Notes: generated by a model from the sequence alone, not told the origin. A stretch of 64,000 nucleotides of DNA from a virus (IMGVR_UViG_3300015214_000024:201787-265786), one strand, 5' to 3'. Positions 9,787-39,957 are shown, counted from the first letter of the stretch. Made by a program: numbers and translations.

Positions 9787-9873
9787 ACCAAAGATGCGTA
9801 GGATGCAGATACTTCGATACTTTGTCTCGTACACAAACCAAAAAAAGACTGTATTCGCTTTTATCACTTTGGT
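9787..9873 (+). ncRNA. YrlA/Y-RNA-like repeat copy 1 (anticodon-like hairpin only)
   Basis: GCGTAG...TACTTCG...TTCG...TTTATC scaffold with closing stem. Confidence 0.7.
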
Positions 9874-9880
9874 AATTATT

Positions 9881-10024
9881 TTGATCAGTAGCGTAGGATT
9901 GGGTTACTTCGATTGCAACTCGACCGATGGGGGTTCGATTCCCTCTTCCTCCACAAACTTTATGGGGGAATAGCTTAATGGACAAAGCGGTAAAATTTCT
10001 CGATTCGCCTTTATCTCTGATCAA
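9881..10024 (+). ncRNA. YrlA/Y-RNA-like copy 2 with circularly permuted tRNA-Cys(GCA)
   Basis: order: anticodon arm, T-arm, 3' acceptor, loop, 5' acceptor, D-arm, inside the scaffold. Confidence 0.85.
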
Positions 10025-10032
10025 TCTTTTAT

Positions 10033-10135
10033 GGGGATGCTGGACGCGCCAGCCCTGGGAACCCGGGGTATCCCGCAATTTAAATTAATTTGCTTTGCGC
10101 GCGGCGAGACGGTTCAATTCCGTTTATCTCCACCA
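10033..10135 (+). ncRNA. tRNA-like RNA with Ala identity and no canonical anticodon arm
   Basis: GGGGATG/TATCTCC (G3:U70), ACCA, T-arm. Confidence 0.65.
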
Positions 10136-10147
10136 AAACAAGAAAAC

Positions 10148-10279
10148 GGCAGCGTAACTTAGTCTATACTAGTTAACATTGACTAAGCCATCGAGTGAAA
10201 GTAGTAGAGTTTGGTGTAGGCATACACTTAAAACTGATTTAGTCTCTACATTAATATTGAAGCGGTGATGCTGCCACCA
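10148..10279 (+). ncRNA. closed-stem RNA ending in ACCA
   Basis: GGCAGCGT/ATGCTGCC then ACCA; internal CTTAGTC/GACTAAG and GTAGAG/CTCTAC stems. Confidence 0.55.
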
Positions 10280-10284
10280 ATAAT

Positions 10285-10371
10285 GCCGAGAAAGCTGTGC
10301 GCGGTGCCAGCAGAATCCATAACAGACGATGGGGTGATCCTTAGTAGGCGGTTCGACTCCGCATCTCGGCA
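10285..10371 (+). ncRNA. atypical tRNA-like RNA, anticodon unassignable
   Basis: GCCGAGA/TCTCGGC acceptor, T-loop TTCGACT, 8-nt loop AACAGACG. Confidence 0.6.
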
Positions 10372-10383
10372 CAAATATAATAT

Positions 10384-10455
10384 ACCCCTGCCCACTGGAT
10401 GGGACCTGACGCTACGAACGTCGGTGAGCTGGTTCGAGTCCGGCCAGGGGTGCCA
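10384..10455 (+). tRNA. tRNA-Arg(ACG), shortened D region
   Basis: loop CTACGAA, GCCA. Confidence 0.85.
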
Positions 10456-10466
10456 GAATAATTTGA

Positions 10467-10544
10467 GTCTATATTCTCCCCGGGAAGTCCGTTTAAAACC
10501 CACAAGTCCGGCTAAGACAGGTGCTGGAGGTTCGGAATATAGAC
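10467..10544 (+). ncRNA. small closed-stem RNA candidate
   Basis: GTCTATATTC/GAATATAGAC 10-bp stem between two tRNAs. Confidence 0.45.
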
Positions 10545-10552
10545 CAAACAAT

Positions 10553-10628
10553 GCCCTATTGGTGAAACTGGATATCACAGGACTTTGCGAAGGTCCAGTC
10601 TCAGGTTCGAGTCCTGAGTAGGGCGCCA
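10553..10628 (+). tRNA. tRNA-Arg(GCG)
   Basis: GGACT-TTGCGAA-GGTCC, GCCA. Confidence 0.85.
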
Positions 10629-10639
10629 TTTTAAATTAT

Positions 10640-10727
10640 GGACACGTTGAGCAGTAGGTTGGCTCACCTGACTCTTAATCAGACGCGCGAAAGCGCCTTG
10701 TGGGTTCGAACCCCACCGTGTCCTCCA
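10640..10727 (+). tRNA. tRNA with CTT (Lys) anticodon and long variable arm
   Basis: loop CTCTTAA; GCGC-GAAA-GCGC variable arm; TCCA end. Confidence 0.8.
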
Positions 10728-10977
10728 GTTTGCTTAGGCCTGACTGTAAAGAAGGCCGCCGCGTGGTTAACAAGAAAACGAATTTAAATTCGTCGAAAGT
10801 TGAAAAAGTTGCTAACAGATTTGCGGAGCAACTGAGCACCTGACTTTTAGGTACTCCCCTTTTATTTTGTTTTTCACCATTATAAAAGGCACAATTGGCA
10901 TACCAGGTAGGTTATTAATAACTCCAAAAGTGTCACCGGGTTACTATCTTCCCGGAAATTTAGGAGATAGATAGTTT

Positions 10978-11050
10978 GGGGCCTTAGCTCAGCTGGGAGA
11001 GCGCTTCGATGGCATTGAAGAGGTCAAGGGTTCGATCCCCTTAGGCTCCA
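10978..11050 (+). tRNA. tRNA-Ala(GGC)
   Basis: loop ATGGCAT, G3:U70. Confidence 0.92.
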
Positions 11051-11059
11051 CAAAAATTT

Positions 11060-11142
11060 CGGTATGCGATGGCTGATTGGAGAAGCCTATGACCTGCGCG
11101 GTTATGATAGTGCGCACCTTGGGTTCGATTCCCACATACCGT
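11060..11142 (+). tRNA. atypical tRNA, possible second GCG anticodon
   Basis: CGGTATG/CATACCG acceptor, ATGAC-CTGCGCG-GTTAT, T-arm. Confidence 0.5.
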
Positions 11143-11152
11143 CCTAATTTGT

Positions 11153-11226
11153 TGCCCATTCCTCTAATGGTAAGAGAACTGGCTTTGAACCAGACAATTG
11201 AGGTTCGATCCCTCGATGGGCATCCA
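11153..11226 (+). tRNA. tRNA-Gln(TTG)
   Basis: loop CTTTGAA, CCA. Confidence 0.9.
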
Positions 11227-11311
11227 AATCTTTGAGTAAGTCAAGCACGTGGTAAAGGATGGCGGTGAGCTGATGTGTAGCGTTGCCATCTACTTAACAA
11301 ACAACTTTTAT

Positions 11312-11383
11312 GCTAGTGTAGTTCAGTGGTAGAACGCTGCTCTCATAAGGCGGATGTCGCAAGTTCAATTCTTGCCACTAGCA
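11312..11383 (+). tRNA. tRNA-Met/Ile2(CAT)
   Basis: loop CTCATAA. Confidence 0.88.
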
Positions 11384-11468
11384 CAACAATATATTGAGCG
11401 GTCTAGAACTACGTAAAAGGGGTGGCATAGCTGAGTTCAGCGGCGCCCTTACCGCCAATTAAAAATAT

Positions 11469-11541
<73 letters not shown>

Positions 11542-11543
11542 CA

Positions 11544-11676
11544 TAATCCAGTAGCGTAGGATACAGATACTTCGGTAAAACTTTTGTCTCAGAAACAAAA
11601 CTAGTTGGTTCAAATCCAACAAATATTCCCCGAAAAGGAATATATGTTCTCTGTGTTCGGTCTTATCTCTGGATTA
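11544..11676 (+). ncRNA. YrlA/Y-RNA-like copy 3 (anticodon-like hairpin, T-arm, extra hairpin)
   Basis: same scaffold; TTTTGT-CTCAGAA-ACAAAA, GTTGG-TTCAAAT-CCAAC. Confidence 0.75.
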
Positions 11677-11681
11677 CTTAT

Positions 11682-11754
11682 GGGGCCATAGCTCAGTTGG
11701 GAGAGCGACACACTTGCAATGTGTAGGTCGGGGGTTCGACTCCCCCTGGCTCCA
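11682..11754 (+). tRNA. tRNA-Ala(TGC)
   Basis: loop CTTGCAA. Confidence 0.93.
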
Positions 11755-11755
11755 C

Positions 11756-11897
11756 AAAAACCAGCAGCGTAGAAATGAGTTACTTCGACTGTTAATCGAC
11801 TGGTTGTGGGTTCGAATCCCACTCTCTCCTCCACTATGGAGAGATAGCTCAATGGTAGAGCGGTAAATTTCTTGTTTCGATTTTTTCTCTGGTTTTT
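11756..11897 (+). ncRNA. YrlA/Y-RNA-like copy 4 with circularly permuted tRNA-Asn(GTT)
   Basis: TCGA-CTGTTAA-TCGA, T-arm, TCTCTCC-TCCA, loop, GGAGAGA-TAGCTCAATGGTAGAGC. Confidence 0.88.
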
Positions 11898-11945
11898 CTT
11901 ATACTTAAATTCAATTCCATAAATAAAGATAAAAGGATATCTATT

Positions 11946-12299
11946 ATGCGCTGGAATGAAATTAACGAAGATTCGCCAAGACCGTTTGACAAACCAGCTA
12001 ACTATGCTGCGCCGAAGAGTGATGATGTAAATAAAACAGAAAACGACGAAGCTGGAATAATTTTTGGACATCAAGTGCCTAATTGGGCTATTGATGATGA
12101 TAAAGTTGCAGTTTTTGGGTCTAATTCAAATTTTATGCAAGCTCAAGTTTTTAAATCAAAGTCCGGAAAGTTTTTCGTAGATTTTGGTAAAGAAAGAACT
12201 CAGGAATTTAATTATGCTGGCCAGGTTGAAAATGCTCTAAGAAAGCTGCGAATAACCTCATTCGAGCGTATTGATTATTATAGACCATCGTCCTACTAA
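11946..12299 (+). CDS. hypothetical late protein with internal-protein-like N-terminus
   Basis: MRWNEINE; ATAAATA upstream. Confidence 0.6.
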   Translation: MRWNEINEDSPRPFDKPANYAAPKSDDVNKTENDEAGIIFGHQVPNWAIDDDKVAVFGSNSNFMQAQVFKSKSGKFFVDFGKERTQEFNYAGQVENALRKLRITSFERIDYYRPSSY

Positions 12300-12314
12300 G
12301 AGTGAAATGGAACG

Positions 12315-12992
12315 ATGAGATTCAATGAATTCATAATTGAAAGCAAACAAATAGCATTAGCTAAAAAAGCATTCCAGCAACTTTCTCCCGAAGCTAAGAA
12401 AGCAATCGAGGACTGGGAGTCAGTTAATTGGATTGGTGGCAAGCTTGAGCAGCATTTTAAAGCTAATGATGAAATCGCTCAAGAAATAGAACGAGCTTTT
12501 AAGCCAGTTAGAGATTCAATTCCAGGTCAAACTTTGAAATTATATCGTGGTATAATTTATGATGATAATTTTAAAACCTGGGAAAACAAATATTTGGAAT
12601 CTTGGTCAAGCGATCGACGAGTTGCTGAACATTTTGCTGGACTCCGTAGTAGGCAGAACGGCCCTTCATCACTACATAAGGTCATATCTGAACCAGAAGT
12701 TGACACTCTTGTTAAGAAATATGAAAAAACTGGTTTTTTGAAATATGCTGGCAAATATTATGTACGCAACAAAGACTTACCTCAATATTACAACATTTAT
12801 GACAAGAACAAGCAATTTGTCACAGATGGCGATAATTTGAAAGCTGATCTTATGAGTGACCAAGAATGGGCTAAAAAATCAAACGATTCAAAACTTGCCA
12901 AAGGCGAAGTTATTGAAAAAGAAATTGATAAAAATAAAATAGTTTGGTTAACTAATAATTTGAATTCAAAAGAATACCTTGTTAGAAAGTAA
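12315..12992 (+). CDS. putative ADP-ribosyltransferase, internal-protein-like N-terminus
   Basis: MRFNEFIIE; LYRG, SWS, terminal KEYLV fit the R-S-E ART pattern. Confidence 0.55.
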   Translation: MRFNEFIIESKQIALAKKAFQQLSPEAKKAIEDWESVNWIGGKLEQHFKANDEIAQEIERAFKPVRDSIPGQTLKLYRGIIYDDNFKTWENKYLESWSSDRRVAEHFAGLRSRQNGPSSLHKVISEPEVDTLVKKYEKTGFLKYAGKYYVRNKDLPQYYNIYDKNKQFVTDGDNLKADLMSDQEWAKKSNDSKLAKGEVIEKEIDKNKIVWLTNNLNSKEYLVRK

Positions 12993-12993
12993 T

Positions 12994-13125
12994 TTACAAG
13001 ATTCCAGTGACAAATTGAACAAGTGGAATCCACCAAGTAATTGCCGTGAACGGTGGTGGACACTTTAGTAAATTGGGTCTCACGACGCGGCAACGTCCCA
13101 GGTTCAAGTCCTGGCTGGTAAGCCA
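12994..13125 (+). ncRNA. expanded tRNA-like RNA with possible pseudoknot
   Basis: TTACAAG/CTGGTAA acceptor, GCCA, T-arm CCAGG-TTCAAGT-CCTGG, CCACCA/TGGTGG. Confidence 0.6.
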
Positions 13126-13153
13126 TAAAACTTAGCAATCATCAATATCACAT

Positions 13154-13225
13154 ACCGAAGTAGCTCAATGGTAGAGCGCCGGCTTCCAATCCCGGGCGTT
13201 GTGGGTTCGATTCCTACCTTCGGTG
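13154..13225 (+). tRNA. tRNA-Trp(CCA), mismatch at loop-closing pair
   Basis: loop TTCCAAT, A1-U72, G73. Confidence 0.7.
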
Positions 13226-13240
13226 CAATAAATATATTTT

Positions 13241-13879
13241 ATGAAATATATTATCTATAAAATCACAAATAATTTGGATGGAAAAATTTACATCGGTAAA
13301 CATCAAACAATGAATATTGATGACGGCTATATGGGCTCTGGTAAATTAATCAGACGAGCGATCCAAAAGTATGGTGTTGAAAATTTCACTAAGGAAATTT
13401 TGTTTGTTTTGGATTCTGAAGAAGAGATGAATTTAAAAGAAGCAGAAATTGTCACGGAAGAATTTATAAGCAAAAATAATACTTATAATTTGTGTTCCGG
13501 AGGCAAAGGCGGCTTCTCATATATCAATAGAAATGGGCTTGGAGTTTCAGAAAATCAAAAAGAAGCTTCACGTAAATTTGCCTATAGAAATCTTGAAAAA
13601 ATTAATGCTCCGGAAAATATAGATTTGAAGCGGGCGGCGATGGCTAAAGTTAATCAAATTAGAATTGATCGAGGCATAAAACCATTTCTTGGCAAGAAAC
13701 ACTCAGAAGAAACTATTGCCAAAATGAAAGAATCCAGCAAGGGCAAAAGCACTGGTAGCAAAAATTCGCAATTTGGAACAATGTGGATTACTGATGGATC
13801 AGTGAACAAAAAAATAGATAGGGATTCTATAATCCCAACTGGATGGAAGCCGGGAAGATTGATGAAAAATATACCCTAA
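13241..13879 (+). CDS. GIY-YIG (Seg-like) homing endonuclease with NUMOD3
   Basis: IIYKITN...IYIGKH, YMGSG, HSEETIAKM. Confidence 0.92.
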   Translation: MKYIIYKITNNLDGKIYIGKHQTMNIDDGYMGSGKLIRRAIQKYGVENFTKEILFVLDSEEEMNLKEAEIVTEEFISKNNTYNLCSGGKGGFSYINRNGLGVSENQKEASRKFAYRNLEKINAPENIDLKRAAMAKVNQIRIDRGIKPFLGKKHSEETIAKMKESSKGKSTGSKNSQFGTMWITDGSVNKKIDRDSIIPTGWKPGRLMKNIP

Positions 13880-13944
13880 GTGTTACGGTAGCACGACGAG
13901 TTCCAACCTCGTTAGCGTGGGTTCGACTCCTACAGGGTATGCCA
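13871..13944 (+). tRNA. tRNA-Trp(CCA)
   Basis: ACGAG-TTCCAAC-CTCGT, GCCA. Confidence 0.88.
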
Positions 13945-14016
13945 AATTTAAGGCTTGACTTTGGCCAACCATTAGTGTAAATCAAAAACCTACAACAAAA
14001 TAGTTTGGAGGTTTAA

Positions 14017-14523
14017 ATGAGCACTGCTCTTGCATTTATTACTGGTTTGGCAACTGCCTACCTTTTTACCTGGCCAGCGTTGGCCATTCTTTTCGTCATT
14101 GGTTTGATTTTTGAACACAATCACCGCAGTGGTTGGGCGATTTTCTTTGGTCTTGTGGCAATGTTTGCTGGATATTTTTATTTCGGCCTCACCTTGTCGA
14201 CGGTACTACTTTATGGTGCTGGCTATTTGGGTATTGGTTTAGTTTGGAGTTTCTGGCGTTACGGGCGTTATGTTCGTTCAGAAGTTGCTCGAATTAAGGC
14301 TGATACTTATATTAAGGAAAGCGAATATGCTAGTTATGCTAAGGGCTTGTCCCCAGCTAAGCATATCGGTAAGATCACATCGTGGATTATCATTTGGCCA
14401 CTAAGTGTTGCAAATATGCTTGTTGGTGACATTGTGGACTTTGTCCAGTATGGTGTGACTAAGCTTTTCAAGATGGTTTATGTCAAGATCTATACCAGTT
14501 TGGTTGCTGATCTTATTAAGTGA
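14017..14523 (+). CDS. multi-pass membrane protein
   Basis: several hydrophobic segments, GGAGG RBS. Confidence 0.75.
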   Translation: MSTALAFITGLATAYLFTWPALAILFVIGLIFEHNHRSGWAIFFGLVAMFAGYFYFGLTLSTVLLYGAGYLGIGLVWSFWRYGRYVRSEVARIKADTYIKESEYASYAKGLSPAKHIGKITSWIIIWPLSVANMLVGDIVDFVQYGVTKLFKMVYVKIYTSLVADLIK

Positions 14524-14553
14524 TACGTGATGGGGCTTAGGCCCCATCAAAAT

Positions 14554-14630
14554 GGTTCGTTAGTCGAGTTGGTTAAGACGCTTGCCTGTCACGCAAGAGA
14601 TCACGGGTTCAAGTCCCGTACGGATCGCCA
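14554..14630 (+). tRNA. tRNA-Asp(GTC)
   Basis: loop CTGTCAC, GCCA. Confidence 0.95.
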
Positions 14631-15110
14631 TTAAATTGTCCCCGTATGACGCAGAATATGTTTGAAAGGGAGAATGAGATGATTGAAGAAATTCAAAAGC
14701 TTAAAAATACTAAGGCAGGTTGCCTTGACCCAATGCAGAATTTGATCGCTTGTGAAGTATTTGAACATTCAACCCTTATGGGAGTAGAAGAACTTTACCA
14801 ACAGATGTATCAAGAATATTGGGATGACGCAAATCAATGCGTTGAGGATGAATATGAGGAAGCTATGAAAAATGGTGAAACTTATTACCATCCAGAGTGG
14901 CATAGGTTTGAAATTGGTGAGGTAACTCGCCAAGACGCTATGAAATCTGCGTACCAACAAGGATGGATTAGGTTAATCTATAATCCACTTGAGCAGAAGC
15001 TGTATGCTGAAAGTGTTCAGAAAATTTTAAATTCTCGAAAGGGATATTTAGAATTTATTGCTGAATGTCTGGACAAAGATTGCACTTTGCAACTGTCCGC
15101 TCAAAAATAA

Positions 15111-15266
15111 TTTACCTATAGGGCTGATGAAACTGTATGAAAAATAACAGCATTATCCCTCTTAGTAGTCGCACGGTGCATTACCGCTCCGCCTGCTTGG
15201 GTGTAACCAAGGCAGGAATTATATTCCCCGGCGTGTATGTGATGGTCTCCGCTTCTAGTAGGTAAA
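15111..15266 (+). ncRNA. closed-stem RNA candidate
   Basis: TTTACCTAT/GTAGGTAAA closure, internal CCTGCTTGG/CCAAGGCAGG hairpin. Confidence 0.5.
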
Positions 15267-15270
15267 CGTT

Positions 15271-15341
15271 GGGGCATCTAACGGGTTAGACTCTGCGCTT
15301 GCACCGCGGAAGAAGGGGTTCGACTCCCCTATGCTCCACCA
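15271..15341 (+). tRNA. tRNA-Ala(TGC), shortened D region
   Basis: loop CTTGCAC, G3:U70, CCA. Confidence 0.82.
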
Positions 15342-15896
15342 TTATGAAAGGATCGTTATGAACATTTATAAAATGTTGGATGAGTTCCCGTATGGGATTG
15401 TGGTCCTTGAGGGGGATTATGTTAAGCATATTTGTCTTTATCCTTCAATGCCCACACAAGCTGATGCTGAAGGATTGTACGATGAACTTCAAAAAGATCC
15501 GGAGCACGGAATGATTGGTGAAGATTTATCCAAGATGAATTTTTGTCCAGCCTCTGGCGAATTATTAAAAGAAGCTATAAGGGCATTTTCAAGTGAAAGC
15601 TATGAATAATAAGGATTTTGTAGAATATACCACTGATCCAGATTTATGGCCAGATCTTGTTGAGATCAGTGATATTTTAGTACGCTTCCCATTTTATATG
15701 AAATGTGATCAGTTCTCAGATGCGGTGTTATTGGCTGAACAATTTGACCGATATTTTGAAGACCAAGATTTGTTTATGGTGTGCAGACAATATGATAATT
15801 TTGTTTTCTTTGAGTCAGAAGAAGCAAGGGCTATTGCGGCAATAATTAAATAAAAGTAGTTGACAGACTATAAATAACATAGTAGATTATACAAAT

Positions 15897-15971
15897 AACC
15901 AGCAGCGTAAAATACGGTTACTTCGTTTATTTGGAAAACACACCGTACTGTATTTGACTTTATCTCTGGTT
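15897..15971 (+). ncRNA. YrlA/Y-RNA-like copy 5 (minimal scaffold)
   Basis: CCAGCAGCGTAA...TTACTTCG...TTTATCTCTGG, downstream of TTGACA and TATAAATA promoters. Confidence 0.75.
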
Positions 15972-15974
15972 TAT

Positions 15975-16048
15975 GCGGGATTAGCATAGTGGTAATGCAG
16001 CAGCCTTCCAAGCTGAATAGAGGGGTTCGATTCCCCTATCCCGCTCCA
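15975..16048 (+). tRNA. tRNA-Gly(TCC)
   Basis: loop CTTCCAA, TCCA. Confidence 0.95.
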
Positions 16049-16118
16049 TTAGGACAGTGGCAAGCTGAAAAGCCTAAGTACACGGCGTCTCCTAATTACC
16101 CTTTTAAGGAACTGCATT

Positions 16119-16310
16119 ATGTTTGAGCCATATGCAATTTTAGGACTTTCATTTGAAGAAGCTACTATGCTTGCAAATGAGAATGGATATTCAATTTTAG
16201 TTGAAGTTGAAGATGGTATGTGGTGCGGAGTCGCGCTGGATTATAATTTAAAACGAATTAAAGTTGAAGTTGAAGATGCACACATTGTTAATGTGAAAGG
16301 TTTAGGTTGA
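16119..16310 (+). CDS. small protein resembling I78/potato-type protease inhibitors
   Basis: LGL...DG...LDY...RI.V.V....IV.V...G pattern. Confidence 0.4.
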   Translation: MFEPYAILGLSFEEATMLANENGYSILVEVEDGMWCGVALDYNLKRIKVEVEDAHIVNVKGLG

Positions 16311-16534
16311 TGGATTTTGTATCAGCTGGCACAATGACCCACGAACAAGAATCAAATATTGTTGAATATCAGATTGTTGATATTGATTATTGGGAGCAAG
16401 ATGCTATTTTGTTCATTGGCGGTCAGCGTTTATATTTTCAATGGGATGCAAAAAATCCACCAACATTGATAGATGCTTTGAACTATTTTAAGAATGAAAT
16501 AGATTCAAAATATGGAATAACAAAATAAATTTAT

Positions 16535-16609
16535 GCGGGTGTAGCTCAGGGGTAGAGCATTTCCTTGCCAAGGAAAATGTCGAGGGTTCGAATCCCTTCT
16601 CCCGCTCCA
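16535..16609 (+). tRNA. tRNA-Gly(GCC)
   Basis: loop TTGCCAA, TCCA. Confidence 0.95.
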
Positions 16610-16695
16610 AAAAGCCGCAAGTAGGTTAGTTGAAATAGACTAGAGTGGCATCCGTCCACACTTAAATATTTAAGTGCAAAGGGGATACCTACATT

Positions 16696-16771
16696 GCCTT
16701 TATAGCTCAGCTGGTAGAGCAACTGATTTGTAATCAGTAGGTCCGGGGTTCGAATCCTCGTGGGGGCACCA
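16696..16771 (+). tRNA. tRNA-Thr(TGT)
   Basis: loop TTTGTAA, CCA. Confidence 0.95.
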
Positions 16772-16780
16772 AAATAATAT

Positions 16781-16855
16781 GCCGGTGTAGCACAATGGTA
16801 GTGCAGCGACCTTGTAAGTCGAAGGTTGCGGGTTCGAGTCCTTTCTCCGGCACCA
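16781..16855 (+). tRNA. tRNA-Thr(TGT)
   Basis: loop CTTGTAA, CCA. Confidence 0.9.
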
Positions 16856-17260
16856 AATATAGAAAGTAATTAATATGCAATTGGGTATGATTATTAGTAT
16901 ATTATTTGCATTTGGTGCAATAATTTCTCTTTTTGCACATCATCATTACAGTAAAAAATTTAAAAAACTCCCAACAGGACCAGAGCAGGATCATTTTCGC
17001 AAACTTGCAATGATCACATTGGGAATGATCGCAGGCTTTGCGTTGGCAGTATTTGTTTCATCGTCAACTATCGATGATCGCAAACCATACCAATATCCTA
17101 TTATAGACCGAATTGATATTCAATATCAGTATGAATATATTGATGTTTGGGAAAATCCTAAGACTAAGTGTAGATATTTAATACACCATACTCGACTATC
17201 AACATCAAAACCTGAAATAAATTACCTACCCTCCGGTAAGCCAGATTGTCCAGAAAACAG

Positions 17261-17488
17261 ATGAAATACTTGACAGATGGTGCAAGACACCTTATATGTG
17301 ATCCATATTCAATAGAAAATCTGCATAAAATGGCAGATGATTTGGATATAAAACGATGTTGGTTTCACGATGGGAAATTTCCACATTATGATATACCAAA
17401 GCGTAGAATAAATGAAATTGAGGCTAAATGTGAAATAATAAAATCTGAAGATATTATTCGAATTATTAAAAAGACAATGCCACTTTAG
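17261..17488 (+). CDS. DUF4031-like protein
   Basis: HL...ENLHKMADDL.IKRCWFH...HYDI. Confidence 0.7.
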   Translation: MKYLTDGARHLICDPYSIENLHKMADDLDIKRCWFHDGKFPHYDIPKRRINEIEAKCEIIKSEDIIRIIKKTMPL

Positions 17489-17553
17489 CAATCTTGGTGA
17501 TGCGGACGGTTGAAGCCCGTCTCAGACTGGTTCGAAACCAGTAGGTGGCACCA
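17479..17553 (+). tRNA. tRNA-Phe(GAA), divergent
   Basis: GACGG-TTGAAGC-CCGTC, CCA. Confidence 0.85.
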
Positions 17554-31125: not shown

Positions 31126-32358
31126 ATGTTAATGTCGGTTCACATTTTTGGCGGTGGAACCTTTTTTCACGTTCGCAACCATATGGCGCTTTGCGCACCA
31201 GCATTTGGTAAAACTGCTCGATATATTAATACCTTTTATGACGATGCATTCTTGCATTTGACAAAAATGGCTGATCCAAATTCAATTCTTGATACCAATG
31301 AAGATGTTGAATATAAGCTTGATAAGCTCATTGAGGATCCTTATTGCAAGATCATCTATTTCAATGTTGCACTTTGTGATTATGAGGGATCTATCTTGGA
31401 TGGCACTCTTGAAGATTGTATAACTCCATCAGGAAAATACGCTCCTCGACTTAAAACTCGAGAAGGTCTACAGCATATGCGCCTCACGCCGGCAGCTAAG
31501 TTGATTGGCAAGATTCGCAAGACTCGCAAGGATATTTTTGTTGTTGGATTTAAGACGACCTGCAACGCAACACCTGATGAGCAATATCTTGCAGCATTGA
31601 ATATGTTGAAAGAAAATTCTATCAACTTGGTTCTCGCGAACGATACAGGTAATCGTCGAAATATGATTGTTGCTCCAGAAGAAACTCGCTATTGCGTTAC
31701 TACTGATCGAAATAAAGCACTTACAACTTTGGTAGAAATGACCAATAGCAGGTCTCGAAACACTTTTACCCGATCGACGGTAATTGATGGCGATCTTGTT
31801 CCTTGGAATTCAAATGAAATTCCTGACAATTTGCGACAGGTGGTCAATCACTGCATCAAAAGAGGAGCATACAAGCCCTTCCGGGGATCAACTGCTGGTC
31901 ACTTTGCAGTCAAGGTGAATGAACACGAAGTTTTGACATCTGTTCGCAAGACAAATTATAATGATTTGGATAAAAGCGGATTGGTTCGAATTGAATACGA
32001 CGGTCTCGATAAAGTCATTGCGCACGGCGCGAAGCCAAGTGTTGGAGGTCAGAGTCAGAGAATTGTGTTTGACGAGCATCCAGATTTGGACTGTATTGTA
32101 CATTTCCATTGTCCTACTAAGGAAAATGTTCGTGATTCGCTATCACACGTGGATCAGGCGCCATCAGAATGCGGGTCACACCAATGCGGGTCAAGAACAT
32201 CAAAAGGATTAAAGTCTTTTGGGAATCTGGAAGCAGTGATGCTTGATAATCACGGGCCAAATATTGTCTTTTCTAAGGATACCCCAGCTCAAGAAGTTAT
32301 TGATTTTATTGAAGCAAACTTTGATCTTGAAGCTAAGACTGGTGGCTTGGTAAGTTAA
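31126..32358 (+). CDS. CoaB/DFP-like ligase domain fused to class II aldolase-like domain
   Basis: GGGT, NVALCDY, VVGFK, LVLAND; C-terminal KPSV, IVHFH, NHG. Confidence 0.7.
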   Translation: MLMSVHIFGGGTFFHVRNHMALCAPAFGKTARYINTFYDDAFLHLTKMADPNSILDTNEDVEYKLDKLIEDPYCKIIYFNVALCDYEGSILDGTLEDCITPSGKYAPRLKTREGLQHMRLTPAAKLIGKIRKTRKDIFVVGFKTTCNATPDEQYLAALNMLKENSINLVLANDTGNRRNMIVAPEETRYCVTTDRNKALTTLVEMTNSRSRNTFTRSTVIDGDLVPWNSNEIPDNLRQVVNHCIKRGAYKPFRGSTAGHFAVKVNEHEVLTSVRKTNYNDLDKSGLVRIEYDGLDKVIAHGAKPSVGGQSQRIVFDEHPDLDCIVHFHCPTKENVRDSLSHVDQAPSECGSHQCGSRTSKGLKSFGNLEAVMLDNHGPNIVFSKDTPAQEVIDFIEANFDLEAKTGGLVS

Positions 32359-33200
32359 TTCTTACCAAGCAACTCTTTCCAAGTAATTTGAATTCCGCGT
32401 TTTTTGTAAGCCTCGACTGGATTTGAATAAACTCCGGTTGGGGTTTCATTATTTCTAAAATATGTCAACCATTCTCTTGATGTTTTTGAATTTGTTGATT
32501 TGAAATATTCTTTAAATTCATCCAATGGCATAATATTTTCCATATAACGTTGTGATAATGCTTCTTGTGCTTTAATTTGGGCCTCCGTTTTTGGCAATCC
32601 TTTTCTTTTTAAAGACCATCGCTTTTTAGTTTCTTCGGAATGTTTATAGCCTTTACGCTTTTCGGCAATTTCTTTATATTGCTCGTCAGACAACAATTTT
32701 CGTCCCTTTAATGAATTGCTAATTTTTTTCTTTGTTTCTTCGGATATGGTGCGCCCTTTTTGATGTTGTGGGGCCGCCATCTGTGCTTCAGTTTTTGGTT
32801 TACCTTTTCGCTGTTGGCTTAATAATTGCTTGGTAGATTCTGAATGAATCATTCCAGCAGTGCTTTCGCCACCATTCGTTAAGTTACTCAATGGCCCTAA
32901 ATTTAAATTATATCTTCCAATAACTTTAATGAAATGTATTTCCCACAATTGTGCTTCTTGTTTGGAAAGATTTTCTTTTAATTTAATAATTATCGGTTTC
33001 TGGCCTAAATCTAATATATGTTTAATTTTTCCATTTTTTATAGGATTACAATTAGAATTCAAGCTGTCAGTTTTTAAATGAGCTTGATATCGTTTACCTT
33101 TGCCCATTCCAATATAAAATGGCTCAAAATCAAAATTTTCTCCATTATAAGAAAAATTTCCTGGCTTTCTTGGATCTAAATATGCGTAAACATAAAACAT
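32355..33200 (-). CDS. GIY-YIG-type homing endonuclease with NUMOD3 repeats
   Basis: FYVYAYLDP...FYIGMG, NLTNGGE, SEETKKK repeats. Confidence 0.88.
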   Translation of the reverse strand: MFYVYAYLDPRKPGNFSYNGENFDFEPFYIGMGKGKRYQAHLKTDSLNSNCNPIKNGKIKHILDLGQKPIIIKLKENLSKQEAQLWEIHFIKVIGRYNLNLGPLSNLTNGGESTAGMIHSESTKQLLSQQRKGKPKTEAQMAAPQHQKGRTISEETKKKISNSLKGRKLLSDEQYKEIAEKRKGYKHSEETKKRWSLKRKGLPKTEAQIKAQEALSQRYMENIMPLDEFKEYFKSTNSKTSREWLTYFRNNETPTGVYSNPVEAYKKRGIQITWKELLGKN

Positions 33201-34203
33201 TTTACTTGACCTTTTTAGGTTATTTAGTTATAAATGCGGTGCAAATACAAATTGGAGATATTAATGTCAGATACTGAAAGTTATTATTCTACCCATAATG
33301 CTGTTTGGAGCGAATCGAAGGGTGAATGGATTGAATATGAAAATTCAAATCCACCATTTCGAACCAAATTTCCAATGTGGCTTATTGTAGGAGCATATGA
33401 GATTTGGATTCTTCCAATTCTTCGCTTCCCTGCCAAGATTGAAGCTGCTATTACTCGAAAGCTTGATCGTATGGATGAAAACCATCAGAATCGAGCCAGG
33501 TAATGGTTACGTATCGAATTAAACGCCGCTCGTGCGGTGATTATGAAATTCACCGCAAGGTAGGCTTCTTTTTCTGGAAGCACGATGGTGGCGACCGCAG
33601 GCTAAAATCCGAAGACCGTTCGAGAGGGTTTCGATATTGGTACGACACATATGAACAGGCTAAGAGAGGCCTTGCTGCTCGAGAAGATTTTGACAAGCTT
33701 TCGGCAGCCGAAGGTGGTACTTTGGGTGAAAAGATTTTCTATAAACCTTTCCCTGAAAAGGAAGATTGATAGTTGACATAGTTTTGTCCATTTAGTATAA
33801 ATGGAATATTGATAAAAACCATACTGATCCAAACGTTGTAGGTTGTCAACAAAGGAGAAGTAAAATGGTTAGATTATCAAAAGCTGTCCTAGCTCGTCAG
33901 ATCAGGTCAGAAGTTCATTATCCAGATGATGGGGATACCCTCGGAATTATGGTAGAACGCTATGGCCCTGGCGCATATTTGGACATTGTTTACGATTATA
34001 GTGATGTGACTGTTCGTATCATTACAAATCGTGAAGAAACAGACGATGAATATAATGCTAGAATTGAAGCACACCGAGTAGCTTTGCAGGCTGAAACCGA
34101 CAGGAAAAAGAAAGCAAAGGCGAAAAAGGAAGCTGAAGAACGAGCATTGTATGAAAAGTTGAGAGAAAAGTATGGAGAGTGATCTCCATACTTTCTACTT
34201 TAT

Positions 34204-34268
34204 GCAGTCTTAGTTTAAGATAAAATATTGATTAATCAATGATCTAGGTTCAAATCCTGGCGACTGTA
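34204..34268 (+). pseudogene. degenerate tRNA lacking an anticodon loop
   Basis: GCAGTC/GACTGT acceptor, T-arm, collapsed ATTGAT-TA-ATCAAT arm. Confidence 0.55.
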
Positions 34269-34270
34269 CA

Positions 34271-34446
34271 AACAGACCAAAAAGGCGATAAGCCTGCAGG
34301 AAGGCAGAAACTGCGGCCTTGAATATGGAAGATACCTTTTCAGTCTTCTGTATAAAGTAGATCCGGAATATATTTGATATTCTCGGACTGGTATAGCTTT
34401 GTCGTGAAAAGGGGGGCTATACGAAAGACATAGGTTTTGGTTTGTT
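34271..34446 (+). ncRNA. closed-stem multi-hairpin RNA candidate
   Basis: AACAGACCAAAA/TTTTGGTTTGTT closure and 4-5 internal hairpins. Confidence 0.55.
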
Positions 34447-34571
34447 GATAGGGTGGCATTTGTGCCGCCCTTTCTTATTATGATTGACAGGTAAATTGGT
34501 ATCTGCTATATCATAACCAAGCTAACTAAGGTGGTTGGCTGTTCATTATTGTTTTCTTGAAAGGAAAATGA

Positions 34572-35951
34572 ATGTTTAGCACTATGACTTTGGCCATTGG
34601 TGGCATTGTCCTAGCAGCATTTGTAGGTATTCTATTTTTTGCTGCTTTGATTTTCCGCCGCGTGGTCCCAACAAATATGGTACATATCGTTCAGTCGTCT
34701 AAAAAGACTGTTTCATATGGCCGTGGACGTACTGAAGGTAATACGTATTACGAAATTCCTTCTTCGATTCCTTTTTTCGGTGTTACTGTTACTCAGTTCC
34801 CAGAATCAGTTTTCGATATTAACTTGAAAGATTATGATGCTTACGACGTTGATCGTTTGCCATTCCTAGTCGACGTTCGTGCGTTCTTCCGCATTAGCGA
34901 TTCACAGATTGCCGCCCAGCGCGTTTCGAACTTTAATGAGCTTCGTGACCAGCTTTCAGGTGTCCTCCAGGGCGCTATCCGTAACGTTCTTGCACAATAT
35001 ACACTTGATCACATTATGAGCGACCGCGCAACTCTTGGTAAACAGTTCTCTGATGTTGTTGATGGTGGCTTGACTGAATGGGGTGTTTCAACCGTCAAGA
35101 CGATTGAATTTATGGACATTCGTGATGCTCGCGATTCACAGGTTATCCACAATATTATGGCTAAGAAAAAGTCATTTATTGAAATGGAAAGCCGTATTGA
35201 AGTTGCTAACAACAAACAGGCTGCTGAATCAAAAGAAATCGAAGCTCAGCGTCAGATTGCCCTTTCAAAGGCAGAAGCTGAACAGACTGTTGGTATTCGC
35301 GAAGCTGAGCGTGACAAGACTGTTGGTATTGCTAACGAAAAGTCAAACCAGGAAGTTCAGGCTGAAGCAAAGGTGACTACTGAACGCCAGATGGAAGTTC
35401 GCAAGGTTGCCGAAGTTAAGCAAGCTGAAATCAACCGCGATGTTGCTGCCGTTAAGGCAGAACAGGACCAAAAGGTTCAGGTCATTGCTGCTGAGGCTGA
35501 TAAAGAATCACAGATTCAAATCGCCGAAGGTAAGTTGGAAGCTACTAAGAAAGAAGCACAAGGTGTTGAAGCTCTTGGTAACGCTAAGGCCGAGGCTGAA
35601 AAGGCACTGTTGCTTGCACCAGTTAACGCCCAGTTGACTCTTGCTAAGGAAATTGGTGAGAATGAAGGTTACCAGAAATATCTCATCGAGATCCGTAAGG
35701 TTGAAGCTGGTGAAAATGTCGGTAAGGAAATGGCTGGTGCGATGTCACAAGCTGACCTTAAGATCATTGCCAACAGTGGTGATGTACAGGGCGGCATTGG
35801 AAAATTGGCTGATGTGTTTACCCCAGCCGGTGGAACCAGCCTTGCTGGTATGTTGAGCGCATTTGCTCAAACTCCTGAAGGCGCCGCAGTAGTTGAGGGT
35901 ATCACAGCAAAGCTTAATGCCCCTGCTGAAACCGGTAAGAAAGCTAAGTAA
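34572..35951 (+). CDS. SPFH/flotillin (band 7) membrane protein
   Basis: N-terminal TM, SPFH domain, AE-rich coiled coil. Confidence 0.9.
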   Translation: MFSTMTLAIGGIVLAAFVGILFFAALIFRRVVPTNMVHIVQSSKKTVSYGRGRTEGNTYYEIPSSIPFFGVTVTQFPESVFDINLKDYDAYDVDRLPFLVDVRAFFRISDSQIAAQRVSNFNELRDQLSGVLQGAIRNVLAQYTLDHIMSDRATLGKQFSDVVDGGLTEWGVSTVKTIEFMDIRDARDSQVIHNIMAKKKSFIEMESRIEVANNKQAAESKEIEAQRQIALSKAEAEQTVGIREAERDKTVGIANEKSNQEVQAEAKVTTERQMEVRKVAEVKQAEINRDVAAVKAEQDQKVQVIAAEADKESQIQIAEGKLEATKKEAQGVEALGNAKAEAEKALLLAPVNAQLTLAKEIGENEGYQKYLIEIRKVEAGENVGKEMAGAMSQADLKIIANSGDVQGGIGKLADVFTPAGGTSLAGMLSAFAQTPEGAAVVEGITAKLNAPAETGKKAK

Positions 35952-35976
35952 AGCTTTTAAACCGAAAAAAAAACGA

Positions 35977-36007
35977 AAAGTGGCGGGGCTTGACCCTGCC
36001 ACTTTTC
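35977..36007 (+). terminator. intrinsic terminator
   Basis: GAAAAGTGGCGGGG/CCCTGCCACTTTTC. Confidence 0.7.
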
Positions 36008-36398
36008 TATGTTAGTGTCTGAAACACTAACAATAGGAGCGCAGTGTGAAATTCATCTTGGAATTCTCTGATTCAGATTTTGAAGAAAAAGGATGGGAAC
36101 GTCCATCAACTGAATTTTCGTTCGACTTGAATCTACCATTTGATTATGATAGTGACGCTTGGTGGGATTGGGATGACAGTGTTCTTCTTGATCAAGTTAG
36201 TGATATGGAAGAGTACGGCGTTCACGATTACACAGCTGGCGGCGATAAAGATGGAAATTGGACTCAATTTGGATATCATTCCTATGAAATCAAGCAAGAT
36301 AAATGGGAAGAAGTAGTTCAAAAATGGCACGAATGGTTTGTTGAGCAAGGTTTTCGGCCTGGTGAAATTACATCGGAAGAAATTAAGGAAGAAGAATA

Positions 36399-36815
36399 AT
36401 GGAAGTTTTAGTTACTACTGTTGGCGCGGTTCGTGATCACGGCGATACTCTTACTATCGTGACAGTTGGTGAGCACGAAGTTGTCGCTAACAAGAAGGAA
36501 GATGGGACCCCGCGATGGACTGCTGGAGAACTTGTTGTTTATGTCCCAGAAGGGGCCATCATTCCAGATGATGTGCTCAAAGAGCGTGGATATTGGGATG
36601 AAGTAAAGGGTAAGGGCTTGCTTGAAGGCAAGCGTGGAAATCGTGTGAAAATGCGTCGTTTTGCTGGCTTCGAATCTCGCGGTTTATTGTTCAAAGTTCT
36701 TCCATCAGTAGATGCGATTCCGGAAAATCATATTCAGCGTGGCTGTGATTACCAAGGCGTGAACTTGGGTGATAATGTTATGGAATTTCTTGGAATTACG
36801 GAGCATACTGTATGA
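36399..36815 (+). CDS. stand-alone OB-fold tRNA-binding-like domain (as at N-terminus of DRB0094-family RNA ligases)
   Basis: GELVVYVPEGAIIP, RVK.RRFAG.ESRGLL, GDNV.EFLGI. Confidence 0.7.
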   Translation: MEVLVTTVGAVRDHGDTLTIVTVGEHEVVANKKEDGTPRWTAGELVVYVPEGAIIPDDVLKERGYWDEVKGKGLLEGKRGNRVKMRRFAGFESRGLLFKVLPSVDAIPENHIQRGCDYQGVNLGDNVMEFLGITEHTV

Positions 36816-37374
36816 TTGAGAAATATACTGATACCGATCTTTACAGCCAGGAATGGCGGCCATCTGACGATCAAATCTTGGCTGCTGCCAGAGTTATAGA
36901 TAGTGACCTTCGTTTCTACGGACTTCTTAGGGAGTATCCTACATACGAAGAAATGCTCATCAGTGATCCAATTGGAGCCAGCGAATGGGGTGGTACGATA
37001 GAACGAATGTTGCTTGCTGCCCACAAGGCCCAAAATGATGATTAACTACGCAGGTATTCGTTCAGTCAAAGCTGGAGAAAAAATCATACCTATAGTTTGG
37101 GTGAAGGATATTGATATTTCGACCATAGAAGAAGGTCATATTACTATATCTACATATGAGGGAGAAATACATAAATCATATGGATTTGATGCTATTGAAA
37201 CCGTTATGGTTTTTAAGCCGAGTGCTCTTGAAGGTCGACGCCTAAAGTGGAAAAAGAATGCTTGGCGTTTTCATAACTTCATAATTCACCCACTTTTAGA
37301 AATCCTTTCAACATTAGGTTTCAAACGCCAAGCGGTGAGATTACACGATTGGGGTACTCCAACGCCTCGTGGAT

Positions 37375-38259
37375 TTAAAGATACTTCTTCTTAATTTCCA
37401 TCCAAGATGTTTTAATTCCTCTTCTTGAATATGCCACTATCGGATTTCGTGGTATGTTGTTAGGAAGTGGATTGTTATTAATATATTCTTGCCATTTTGA
37501 ATAACTATTGACATTGATAGATTTTAGAAAAAATAGAAAATCTTCGAAACTGATATAGTTTTCTCTTAATTTCTCTTTAGTCTCATCTGAAAGTTTTTTA
37601 CCAAGATTGGCCTTTCGTAGTTTTTCTTTAACGCTGTCAGGTCTTGTTCTACCTGTCAATGCTACTCTTATCTTTTCAATAGACTCAGCTGATGGCTTGG
37701 CTCGATTTATTGCTGATCGTCTAAGTATTTCTTTGGTTTTTTCAGAAGCTTTAGATCCTTTTTTAGCCTTACTTATTTTGGCTTTAGCTTCATCAGTATG
37801 ACCTTTGCCCAATCGCGCAGCTTGTATGGATAAAACTTGCTTTTCGCGATAAACTGGATCATTCCACTTGGAAGTTTGTATTTCACTTTTAGTTTTGGCA
37901 ACATTATTTTTAGCGTAGTTCTTCTTATAAGTAGTTTTTTGTTTTTCGATACTACGTTCATCATTATAGAAATTAGTTCTACCGATTTGCTTATTAAGCC
38001 ACTGGTTTGAACTGTGACAATGAAAACACTCTTGAAATTTAATTTCTAAATTTATGATCTGATCAACACCGCCAGCAGCTAAGATTTCAATCACATCTGG
38101 CTCGCCATTAAATGCTCGGAATTCTTTCACATAATGACTTGATGTGAAATATGTTTTCCATAAATTTGATGGATGAGCACTTTTTCCATATTGGCATCCA
38201 ACATACCATTTGTCTATTTTAGACCATCCAATTATGTAAAGATAAGGCAAATTTTCCAT
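37375..38259 (-). CDS. homing endonuclease (GIY-YIG variant) with NUMOD3 repeats
   Basis: YLYIIGW...WYVG, YFTSS, NUMOD3-like repeats. Confidence 0.82.
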   Translation of the reverse strand: MENLPYLYIIGWSKIDKWYVGCQYGKSAHPSNLWKTYFTSSHYVKEFRAFNGEPDVIEILAAGGVDQIINLEIKFQECFHCHSSNQWLNKQIGRTNFYNDERSIEKQKTTYKKNYAKNNVAKTKSEIQTSKWNDPVYREKQVLSIQAARLGKGHTDEAKAKISKAKKGSKASEKTKEILRRSAINRAKPSAESIEKIRVALTGRTRPDSVKEKLRKANLGKKLSDETKEKLRENYISFEDFLFFLKSINVNSYSKWQEYINNNPLPNNIPRNPIVAYSRRGIKTSWMEIKKKYL

Positions 38260-39704
38260 ATTTTAATCAACCATTCTATAGTTTAAATTTATTTATAGAC
38301 TTTTGAAATGATATAAAGTATAGTTAATGGCAATTAACTAAGGACAGAAATATGGCACATATATATTATTTTAAAGAAAAAAAGAGAAACGAAGATTCTT
38401 ACTCTGCCGGGATTCTTTCTATCCCTAAAGGCCCATATTGCTCCCCTGAATTATTGCCAGTGATTGGTAAAATTTTTCAAGATTCTGATCAAACCTTTTA
38501 TGAAATTGTTGACATAAAATTTAATGCTAAAATGACAAGTCAAATTACGAACTCAATTGATCAAATTTATGATGTGTATTGTGATCAACTTTAAATCTTA
38601 TGATTGGACCACTCCAGTGCCGAGAGGTTTTAGAGATTAAAAAGATGACAGATTATTCCATATCAAATACTTTTACCTTTTTCGCAAATGGTGAAGCTGA
38701 TATTCTTGAACTGCTTGAAATGGTTAAACGTTATGACGGCCCTGGACATATTGGAAATCAAATTAGAATCATTAATATGATTTACACCATTAATATGTCA
38801 ATTGAGATTGAAAAATATAGAAGAATAGCTGACCAATATCTTGCTTGGAAGGATCTATTAAGTATTTTAAATTCTTGGGAGGAAGCTTGGTTGGCGGTTG
38901 TGACGGCAAATCCAACCAGAGCTAAATTTTGCTGTAATGAAACTGTGATAAATTATACTAAGCTAATTTCTTGATCAGGACCCTAATTAAATAAGTATAT
39001 AATATAGCAGAGGGAAAGAAAAATGAATTATAGGAATCTTGACATCTTCTAGTGATACACAACTAGGAGAATGACAGATGAAATATACGTATCCATTTAC
39101 CGCAATTTTCAAATGCGGTTATACTACCGAAGTGAACAATTCTTCTGAGCTTCGAGCGCTCGTGAAAGAATATGGAGCATTTGGCTATGAATGGATTGAA
39201 ACATCATTTAGCCGAGCATATCGCTATAAGCCTTTTTGTGAAACATATCCAAAGGACTATGTTCCACGTTTCGAATCAGCTCACTATTTCGAATGGATCG
39301 TTCGAGATTTTTATGGTTTAAAAGTCGACTATGCTTTAGTTGAATTTGATGAAAAACCGTACCGAGCTTGGTGGGCTTCCGGTCGATATGAGGAACAGAG
39401 AAAGGCTGCTGAAAGAGGCCTGCCGATTCCATACGTTCGCAGCCGCTGGAGGGCAAACCGCAAATATCCAAAGAATGGCCGCCGCGGCGTCGCGGCAAGA
39501 AACAGCCAGGATAAAAAGATTTTTAATAAAAACAAGAGCCAAAATAATTTCGATGAATGATTTTGGTTGACAATGAACTAGTCCTTGTACTATAATGATC
39601 CAATAAGGGCTAGTTTAGAGGCGTAAGACACCTCGCTGATGACGCCAATCGAGAAGAACGGCAAACCGGGAGGGACCGGGAGTTTATCAGTAAAACGTTT
39701 GTTT

Positions 39705-39804
39705 AGGTCTTTAGTGTAATGGAAGCACTTTATTAGCAGGCACTTAATTTATTAGGACCTGGTAAGCGGAAATAAGAGTCACGGTTCGATCCCGTGAAGA
39801 CCTG
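39705..39804 (+). ncRNA. tRNA-like RNA with expanded anticodon arm
   Basis: AGGTCTT/AAGACCT, D-arm GTGT/GCAC, T-arm CACGG-TTCGATC-CCGTG. Confidence 0.7.
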
Positions 39805-39806
39805 CA

Positions 39807-39957
39807 AAACCTAGTAGCGTAGGAATGAGATACTTCGATAGGAAAACCTTCGTGTCGCTGGTTCGATTCCAGCTCTCCCCACCAGCTTTTATGGGGAGAT
39901 AGCTCAGACGGTAGAGCAGAGGAAAGAAAAACTTGTTTCGCTTTTATCTCTAGGTTT
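39807..39957 (+). ncRNA. YrlA/Y-RNA-like copy 6 with circularly permuted Phe-like tRNA
   Basis: scaffold; T-arm, TCTCCCC-ACCA, loop, GGGGAGA-TAGCTCAGACGGTAGAGC. Confidence 0.85.

Follow-up and report, generated by a model that had tools for sequence, protein, structure and literature searches.

Six Y-RNA-like elements with a shared scaffold among the tRNA genes of a phage that encodes Ro60

Here, we describe six dispersed RNA elements in a 64,000-nucleotide stretch of phage DNA (IMGVR_UViG_3300015214_000024:201787-265786, hereafter the window), which covers positions 201,787–265,786 of a 455,147-bp viral record with a CheckV completeness of 100%. Near-identical DNA is present in landfill metagenomes, from which the phage probably originates. 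The elements, referred to as e1 to e6, all lie on the + strand, at window positions 9787–9873 (e1), 9881–10024 (e2), 11544–11676 (e3), 11756–11897 (e4), 15897–15971 (e5) and 39807–39957 (e6), as does every one of the 38 tRNA genes that ARAGORN identified in the window. An original prediction, made from the sequence alone, had interpreted them as an expanded and diversified phage family of Y RNAs. Ro60–Y RNA particles are conserved from bacteria to humans, and we know of no established role for the tRNA-like module of Y RNAs. The phage versions of these particles have, to our knowledge, barely been studied, with one structural paper on Thermus phage phiLo.

All six elements were found where they had been predicted, and reading and alignment revealed a common two-stem scaffold. 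From 5′ to 3′, its outer stem is followed by a single bulged base, a 2-bp AG/CU step (U-A in e1), an invariant CGUA and an 8-bp inner stem, and then by (A/U)UACUUCG, a variable module, the complement of the inner stem, a U-rich loop of eight bases and the complement of the outer stem. The invariant sequences between the stems are GCGUA(G/A) and (A/U)UACUUCG, and the 3′ side closes with the conserved U-rich loop and then CU. A structural parser found the inner stem paired at 8/8 positions and the outer stem 6–9 bp long in all six copies, with stem sequences that vary from copy to copy. Like a Y RNA, each element thus has an end-paired stem with an internal loop and a module, two covarying helices flanking an asymmetric internal loop.

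We built a covariance model (R1) from a seed of eight minimal elements, two from the window and six from other phages. This model recovered 6/6 window copies with E-values of 1.4e-10 to 1.9e-18 (cmsearch) and gave no further match in the 64 kb; together with a genome scan, as had been proposed, it brought to light a seventh copy and relatives in other phages. The genome-wide R1 search shortens long members, and its scores are below those of direct cmsearch. The compensatory changes claimed for both stems were borne out in a model-fitted alignment of 44 family members from 15 sources, in which 93.4% of the cells were paired and 16 of the 17 pairs had changes on both sides. None of 500 shuffles reached the observed pairing value, and sliding the partner columns by 1–3 positions as a control lowered pairing to 40–50%. 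From 14 long members aligned by MAFFT, with no fitting to the model, RNAalifold independently predicted the outer and inner stems, the T arm, an acceptor stem of 7 bp and the D arm, and 23 of its 29 pairs had changed on both sides with pairing kept. The scaffold of the six elements is real, far beyond chance.

The six copies differ in their modules. Those of the two minimal Y-like RNAs, e1 (R1 69.7 bits, E 6e-18; stems and fold) and e5 (71.4 bits, E 1.9e-18), comprise one hairpin only; the hairpin of e1 has an anticodon-loop-like loop of 7 nt (CUCGUAC), and T, acceptor and D arms are absent. As predicted for one copy, e5 has its own promoter, TTGACA-17-TAGATT at 15860–15888. Two copies are of the YrlA type. 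In e2 (47 bits, E 3e-11; consensus fold), the scaffold is followed by UUAC, a hairpin (loop UUGCAAC), a T arm, a 7-bp closed acceptor stem and a D arm; in e4 (52.4 bits, E 7.8e-13), a hairpin with CUGUUAA in its loop precedes a T arm, an acceptor stem of 7 bp with the loop UCCA+CUAU, and a D arm. In both, UUAC is able to pair with a GUAA located after the D arm. The sixth copy, e6 (44.7 bits, E 1.4e-10), has the canonical YrlA topology: its scaffold runs straight into the analogue of an anticodon stem, with no separate hairpin, and leads to a T arm, a 7-bp acceptor stem, whose loop is made up of ACCA and a spacer of 8 nt, and a D arm. Finally, e3 is of a partial type (47.7 bits, E 1.9e-11; fold z −3.4): in addition to the scaffold, it has an anticodon-arm-like hairpin with the loop CUCAGAA, as well as a T arm and a closed stem of 7 bp. 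The order of T arm, closed acceptor-like stem and D arm with conserved T- and D-loop nucleotides, which marks the tRNA-like domain of YrlA, was found in e2, e4 and e6; the D arm is missing in e3, and e1, e5 and the seventh copy have no such domain.

The hairpins of e1–e4 and of many relatives have 7-nt loops of the form Y-U-NNN-R-N. The loop CUGUUAA is common to e4 and to members in two other phage records (L028 and L064) and in Xylella phage Usme, and the module subtypes therefore predate these phages. The acceptor loops of e4, e6 and three copies in a further phage record (L083) read N-CCA, followed by a short spacer that ends in UAU before G+1; in e4 and e6, this ending is the same context that precedes the tRNA genes of the window phage. 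When reordered, the modules of e2, e4 and e6 had a best identity of 72–79% to any of the 38 window tRNAs (median ~63%). Recent capture of resident tRNAs was rejected on the basis of these values; e6, for example, is 73% identical to tRNA-Phe vs 77% to tRNA-Gly. This low identity and the conservation of subtypes between phages indicate that the modules are old paralogues, not swapped-in tRNAs. The original prediction had described exchangeable tRNA-derived modules, ranging up to whole permuted tRNAs. The tRNA-like modules exist, but their exchangeability was overstated, and e2, e4 and e6 have the ordinary YrlA layout with the scaffold replacing the anticodon stem. A functional or permuted tRNA gene was ruled out for all six elements, with the acceptor stem closed by a loop and the scaffold at the position of the anticodon stem. 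ARAGORN called 0/6 elements as tRNA, and the Rfam tRNA model gave only partial matches of 24–29 bits inside e2, e3 (29.3 bits at 11566–11628) and e4. The closed acceptor stem of e2 contains G3:U70 and A73, the alanine identity set that is also used by tmRNA, followed by CAA and not CCA.

The closest known RNAs are the YrlA Y RNAs of bacteria and phages, defined by GNCGAA(N)G near the 5′ end and a Ro60 gene within 4 kb on the same strand, with an architecture in which an asymmetric-loop stem leads through YUAY and a variable region to the T arm, the closed acceptor stem and finally the D arm (Chen et al. 2014, PMC4201824). YrlA has neither a free CCA end nor an anticodon loop (Wang et al. 2018, bioRxiv 10.1101/312249). 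The phage family and YrlA (RF02553; PMC4201824; crystal structure in bioRxiv 10.1101/312249) are alike in the end-paired terminal stem and asymmetric loop (4–5 nt vs ~8 nt), a 5′ motif that resembles GNCGAA(N)G, the YUAY element following the second helix, the succession of T arm, closed acceptor stem and D arm with conserved loop nucleotides, and the linked Ro60 gene on the same strand. However, the phage family has an invariant UACUUCG block and sub-threshold Rfam scores, many of its members have an anticodon-loop-like hairpin with 7 nt in the loop, in contrast to YrlA, which “lacks the anticodon loop”, and several have no tRNA-like domain at all. Where YrlA has GNCGAA(N)G, the window copies carry (A/U)GCGUA(G/A)(G/A), which differs in one core base (CGUA vs CGAA); the CGAA core is present in some members from other phages, as GCGAAG or GCGAAAG. 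At gathering thresholds (69 bits for YrlA), Rfam found tRNAs only in the window, and no YrlA. The proposed cmsearch with the YrlA model did yield matches to e4 (40.5 bits, E 2e-6), e6 (37.6 bits, E 1.3e-6) and e2 (25.9 bits), all under the cut-off, and no meaningful match to e1, e3 or e5.

The minimal copies e1 and e5 and the seventh copy match the description of the short Y RNAs, namely YrlB of Salmonella and M. smegmatis and Yrl1 and Yrl2 of phiLo (PMC4201824, PMC12135203), which are bound by Ro60, have the Ro60-binding motif of YrlA and no full tRNA-like domain, and occur several per locus upstream of Ro60. Unlike Yrl1 and Yrl2, e1 and e5 are distant from Ro60. As the R1 match in phiLo is marginal and does not lie at the published Yrl positions, the scaffold sequence represents a lineage distinct from phiLo Yrl. 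The copies with NCCA loops can be compared with the dimeric-tRNA origin model for YrlA, which, as cited in bioRxiv 10.1101/312249, derives the acceptor stem from spacer sequence (Sim and Wolin 2018), and with permuted or two-piece tRNA-like RNAs such as permuted tmRNA. The e4, e6 and three L083 copies read as a 3′ tRNA half with NCCA, a spacer and a 5′ tRNA half, an order that resembles a tRNA–tRNA junction, and the spacer is like the phage's tRNA leaders. Unlike in the model as cited there, the acceptor strands of these copies complement each other, which gives a real acceptor stem. At the sequence level, the loops with NCCA, leader and G+1 directly support the view that YrlA arose from tandem tRNAs, and they predict processing into two pieces.

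The window contains no Ro60/TROVE gene, as had been noted, and the search of the whole genome that had been proposed identified one, together with no RtcB. The Ro60 gene (TROVE+vWA) is located at genome positions 174,679–176,238 (L150:9680-11239), ~25 kb upstream of the window and on the same strand as the RNA copies. Its product of 519 aa fits a Ro60 protein of about 500 aa with a TROVE HEAT-repeat ring and a vWA domain: it matches PF05731 (TROVE) with 62.9 bits (E 4e-17), VWA_2 weakly (20.2 bits, below the Pfam cut-off of 27) and phrog_850 with E 2e-46. It aligns end to end with phiLo Ro60 (PDB 9KOP; E 6e-33), to which it is the most similar among solved structures. The seventh copy of the scaffold (copy 7) was found by a whole-genome motif scan directly upstream of this gene and on the same strand, at genome positions 174,347–174,565 with the motif at 174,361. 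It has an upstream promoter, TTGACT-17-TATATT, and its 8-bp inner and 6-bp outer stems close ~200 nt downstream, so that its 3′ end lies ~115 nt before the Ro60 start codon. The module consists of ~160 nt of several hairpins that are not tRNA-like, and copy 7 has no Rfam match, even at E 10. As no terminator separates it from Ro60, copy 7 is probably co-transcribed with the gene.

Next, we focused on the linkage between scaffold and TROVE genes in other phages. IMG/VR viral contigs were scanned with the RNA motif alone (14 specified bases); the raw matches are mostly due to chance, as expected for a motif of this length, and we kept only those accepted by the covariance model or by a filter for both stems. 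TROVE was encoded in 9/10 of the records found in this way and tested, against a background of 94 in 50,697 phage records (tblastn with the Ro60 protein). In 8/10, the elements lie within ~1 kb of the TROVE gene on the same strand; in the ninth TROVE-encoding record, the TROVE match is weak and ~10 kb from the elements. R1 reveals more diverged copies, and arrays of three to eight are common, with L083 having eight copies, L028 six and L064 four. In the reverse test, eight TROVE-encoding phage records (seven cultured phages and one uncultured genome) were searched with R1. Matches adjoining TROVE comprised five copies in Caulobacter phage CcrColossus, four in Xylella phage Usme and two in Microcystis phage Mvi-JY20, and were also found in the 634-kb uncultured phage, which has one scaffold copy 100 kb from its Ro60 gene as well; the match in Brevundimonas phage Bambus is marginal. 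The Rfam YrlA model overlaps R1 matches in CcrColossus, Usme and L083 with 36–50 bits, in the same sub-threshold range as e4 and e6; the elements adjoining TROVE in CcrColossus and Usme reach 40–50 bits. CcrColossus is named as having a Ro60 homologue and a Y-like RNA in a passage of PMC12135203 that cites PMC4201824.

Two of these arrays deserve separate mention. A near-identical eight-copy array lies directly downstream of TROVE in two contigs of 186 kb and 358 kb (L083, positions 4778–6200, and L095, 3543–4536 and beyond) and is a mix of minimal, NCCA-loop and tetraloop-closed types. The 115-kb phage L028 (IMGVR_UViG_3300028602_000002), which has direct terminal repeats, encodes a tmRNA (10041–10389, 119.5 bits) ~0.8 kb from its six-copy Y-like RNA array and Ro60 gene.

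Taken together, the Ro60 gene, the seventh copy beside it and the TROVE linkage in many unrelated phages uphold the predicted expanded family, and we estimate a probability of roughly 80% that e1–e6 and copy 7 are phage-encoded Y RNAs, most likely partners of the phage's own Ro60. The scaffold would be the docking site of Ro60, formed by the terminal stem, the AG/CU step, the asymmetric internal loop with CGUA on its 5′ side (one base from the published CGAA core) and ~8 U-rich nucleotides on its 3′ side, the 8-bp helix and YUAC. The distal module would serve as the effector or display part; in those of e2, e4 and e6, the hairpin or variable region may form an L-shaped tRNA mimic together with the T arm, the closed 7-bp acceptor stem and the D arm. 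In characterised particles, phiLo Ro60 binds two phage Y-like RNAs and the host PNPase (PMC12135203). By analogy with such particles, the phage RNAs would control access to Ro60 and link the protein to exoribonucleases or tRNA-binding factors of the host, and Ro60 and its RNAs could act in RNA surveillance, repair or turnover during infection. Ro60 binding, expression, the RNA ends and the function of the copies are what we infer from these features.

Several observations weigh against this assignment. The six window copies lie 35–65 kb downstream of the Ro60 gene, on the same strand, which is far beyond the 4 kb given for YrlA; copy 7 alone is adjacent, and it has no tRNA-like domain. Without RtcB in its genome, the phage lacks the rsr-yrlBA-rtcBA repair context of the Salmonella type. 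No window copy attains 69 bits with the YrlA model (the best being 40.5), and the 5′ motif has CGUA and not the published CGAA. In the reverse test, no R1 match was found near TROVE in crAss001 or Vibrio phage pv27, and that in phiLo is marginal. Lastly, the contigs from RNA libraries cover the elements and the adjacent coding DNA at similar depth. These contigs come from four metatranscriptome runs of one study (straw); they cover e1/e2 and parts of the array, e5 is uncovered, and as the neighbouring protein-coding DNA is covered at a similar low depth, this coverage says nothing on transcription. In related phage contigs from two of the straw RNA libraries, the A-run within the module loop of e1 is shorter by one A (window 9840), at an unpaired and non-conserved site.

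A more specific version of the Y RNA reading, which we consider rather unlikely, is that the copies form a Ro60-bound ‘display set’ of tRNA mimics, in which each paralogue shows a different anticodon-loop-like hairpin and some are CCA-ended after RNase P cleavage, serving as decoys or sensors for defence nucleases of the host that target tRNA or as recruiters of tRNA enzymes. Cleavage at the encoded NCCA-spacer-G+1 junction would leave some paralogues with a genuine CCA-ended acceptor stem, e2 would present its alanine identity pair and A73, and production would be coupled to transcription of the tRNA operons. Enzymes acting on tRNA might then be brought to Ro60, and possibly even aminoacylation could take place.

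The same features are open to a reading without Ro60, in which the elements mimic tRNA so as to titrate or sense nucleases of the host that target tRNA, or other defence proteins that bind tRNA, and the link to Ro60 is incidental. The Y-U-NNN-R-N loops of e1–e4, the CUGUUAA loop common to four phages, the location of the elements among tRNAs and anticodon-less tRNA-like RNAs, and the NCCA encoded in the acceptor loops of e4 and e6 are all consistent with such decoys. However, this leaves unexplained the strictly conserved scaffold, which is not a tRNA structure, as well as its adjacency to TROVE in most phages tested, and the minimal copies hold almost nothing but scaffold. We therefore regard it as improbable.

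The placement of the copies among tRNA genes bears on their release. As predicted for five of them, the copies follow or closely neighbour a tRNA, a tRNA-like gene or another copy, with gaps of 0–7 nt, and every window copy has a tRNA or tRNA-like neighbour at a distance of 0–7 nt, on one side or both. A non-canonical tRNA-like RNA (9679–9786, +) with an acceptor stem, D arm, T arm, ACCA end and odd central arm, seen from its fold and called by neither ARAGORN nor Rfam, lies directly 5′ of e1, which starts right after its ACCA end at 9786; e2 begins 7 nt after e1. Three tRNA genes on the + strand (ARAGORN, Rfam) adjoin the next copies: tRNA-Lys(UUU) (11469–11542) ends 1 nt before e3, tRNA-Ala(UGC) (11682–11755) lies 5 nt after e3 and 0 nt before e4, and tRNA-Gly(UCC) (15975–16048) lies 3 nt 3′ of e5. 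A tRNA-like RNA with a 38-nt insert replacing its anticodon loop (39705–39804, +; Rfam tRNA 39.4 bits, fold) ends 2 nt 5′ of e6. Copies are embedded in tRNA arrays in three other phage records as well (L072, L091 and L101); L072, for example, has tRNA-Asn followed by an element, and an element between tRNA-Gly and tRNA-Trp.

From this spacing, the simplest inference is that the six window copies are transcribed within the tRNA arrays and freed by tRNA-processing enzymes that cut the flanking tRNAs, with e5 and copy 7 transcribed from their own promoters as well. Processing of the 3′ end of the tRNA-like RNA at 9679–9786 would set the 5′ end of e1, and an RNase P cut at the 5′ end of tRNA-Gly(UCC) would set the 3′ end of e5. 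The YrlA of M. smegmatis, whose acceptor stem has 7 bp, is an RNase P substrate and acquires CCA in vivo (PMC4201824). A similar fate is probable for e4 and e6, where cleavage by RNase P within the acceptor loop would give a two-piece RNA with a CCA end.

Such placement could also mean that the elements are no more than structural punctuation of tRNA operons, i.e., processing, spacing or stabilising signals with no function in trans. Copies do lie 0–12 nt from tRNAs in the window phage, L072, L091 and L101, but most phages have arrays beside TROVE without a nearby tRNA (L083, L064, L061, CcrColossus and Usme), e5 and copy 7 have promoters of their own, and the conserved tRNA-like tertiary nucleotides are needless for punctuation, which makes this explanation quite improbable. 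It is hardly credible that the elements are decaying relics of tandem tRNA duplication or a selfish MITE-like repeat with no present function, as the dispersed copies and the likeness of their acceptor loops to tRNA–tRNA junctions (NCCA, spacer, G+1) might suggest, as both stems are kept by compensatory changes among 44 members, the single-stranded motifs are invariant across unrelated phages, no transposase or target duplication is evident, and the outer stems differ among copies, so that these are not terminal inverted repeats of one mobile element.

Phage Y-like RNAs beside Ro60, modular Y RNAs, several Y RNAs per locus and RNase P cleavage of one YrlA were already known. In the literature searched, we found no account of the conserved phage scaffold, of members without a tRNA-like domain, of arrays of up to eight copies, of placement in tRNA operons far from Ro60, of encoded NCCA-spacer junctions or of anticodon-loop-like hairpins, which thus seem to be new, and the expansion to seven copies in one phage looks new as well. 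A definition based on the scaffold finds Y RNAs without a tRNA-like domain, which searches based on that domain would tend to miss. That phages commonly hold arrays of 2–8 paralogues with different modules points to several effectors or targets, and the wiring of Y RNA genes into tRNA operons would tie both the synthesis and the maturation of these RNAs to the tRNA machinery. As CcrColossus and Xanthomonas/Xylella phages carry the same scaffold family, these ideas can be tested in culturable systems.

The window phage has a strong investment in translation: its genome encodes more than 40 tRNAs as well as IF3 and an aminoacyl-tRNA synthetase. Interleaved with e1, e2 and e6 are at least five tRNA-shaped RNAs (window 9679–9786, 10029–10136, 10283–10375, 10384–10458 and 39705–39806). 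These have an acceptor stem and a T arm, usually a D arm, and some end in a CCA-like sequence at the 3′ side. Where the anticodon arm would normally be, they have a long or odd central region; ARAGORN called none of them, and their Rfam scores are weak or absent. A further weak match, of tmRNA, tRNA or tymovirus-TLS type (RF00023 31.9 bits, tRNA 30.1 bits), lies at 15271–15341, ~550 nt upstream of e5. Short ORFs on both strands overlap some of the RNA elements; as they overlap tRNAs too, they were treated as spurious.

The genes around Ro60 include a LigT/Acb1-like 2H phosphoesterase directly upstream of copy 7 (L150 8773–9294), a 235-aa protein with no Pfam or PHROG match that overlaps the Ro60 stop codon (L150 11239–11946), IF3 and a class II aminoacyl-tRNA synthetase after Ro60 (L150 12008–12523 and 13846–15030, respectively), and NAD-salvage genes. 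Near the Ro60 locus, we also found a tRNA with the anticodon CUA, an amber suppressor that ARAGORN labels ‘Pyl’ (L150 513–587, genome 165,512–165,586), and two tRNA-like genes with anticodons of 4 nt and 2 nt (L150 18180–18255 and 18418–18492; genome 183,179–183,254 and 183,417–183,491). These three genes may hint at stop-codon recoding or frameshift suppression.

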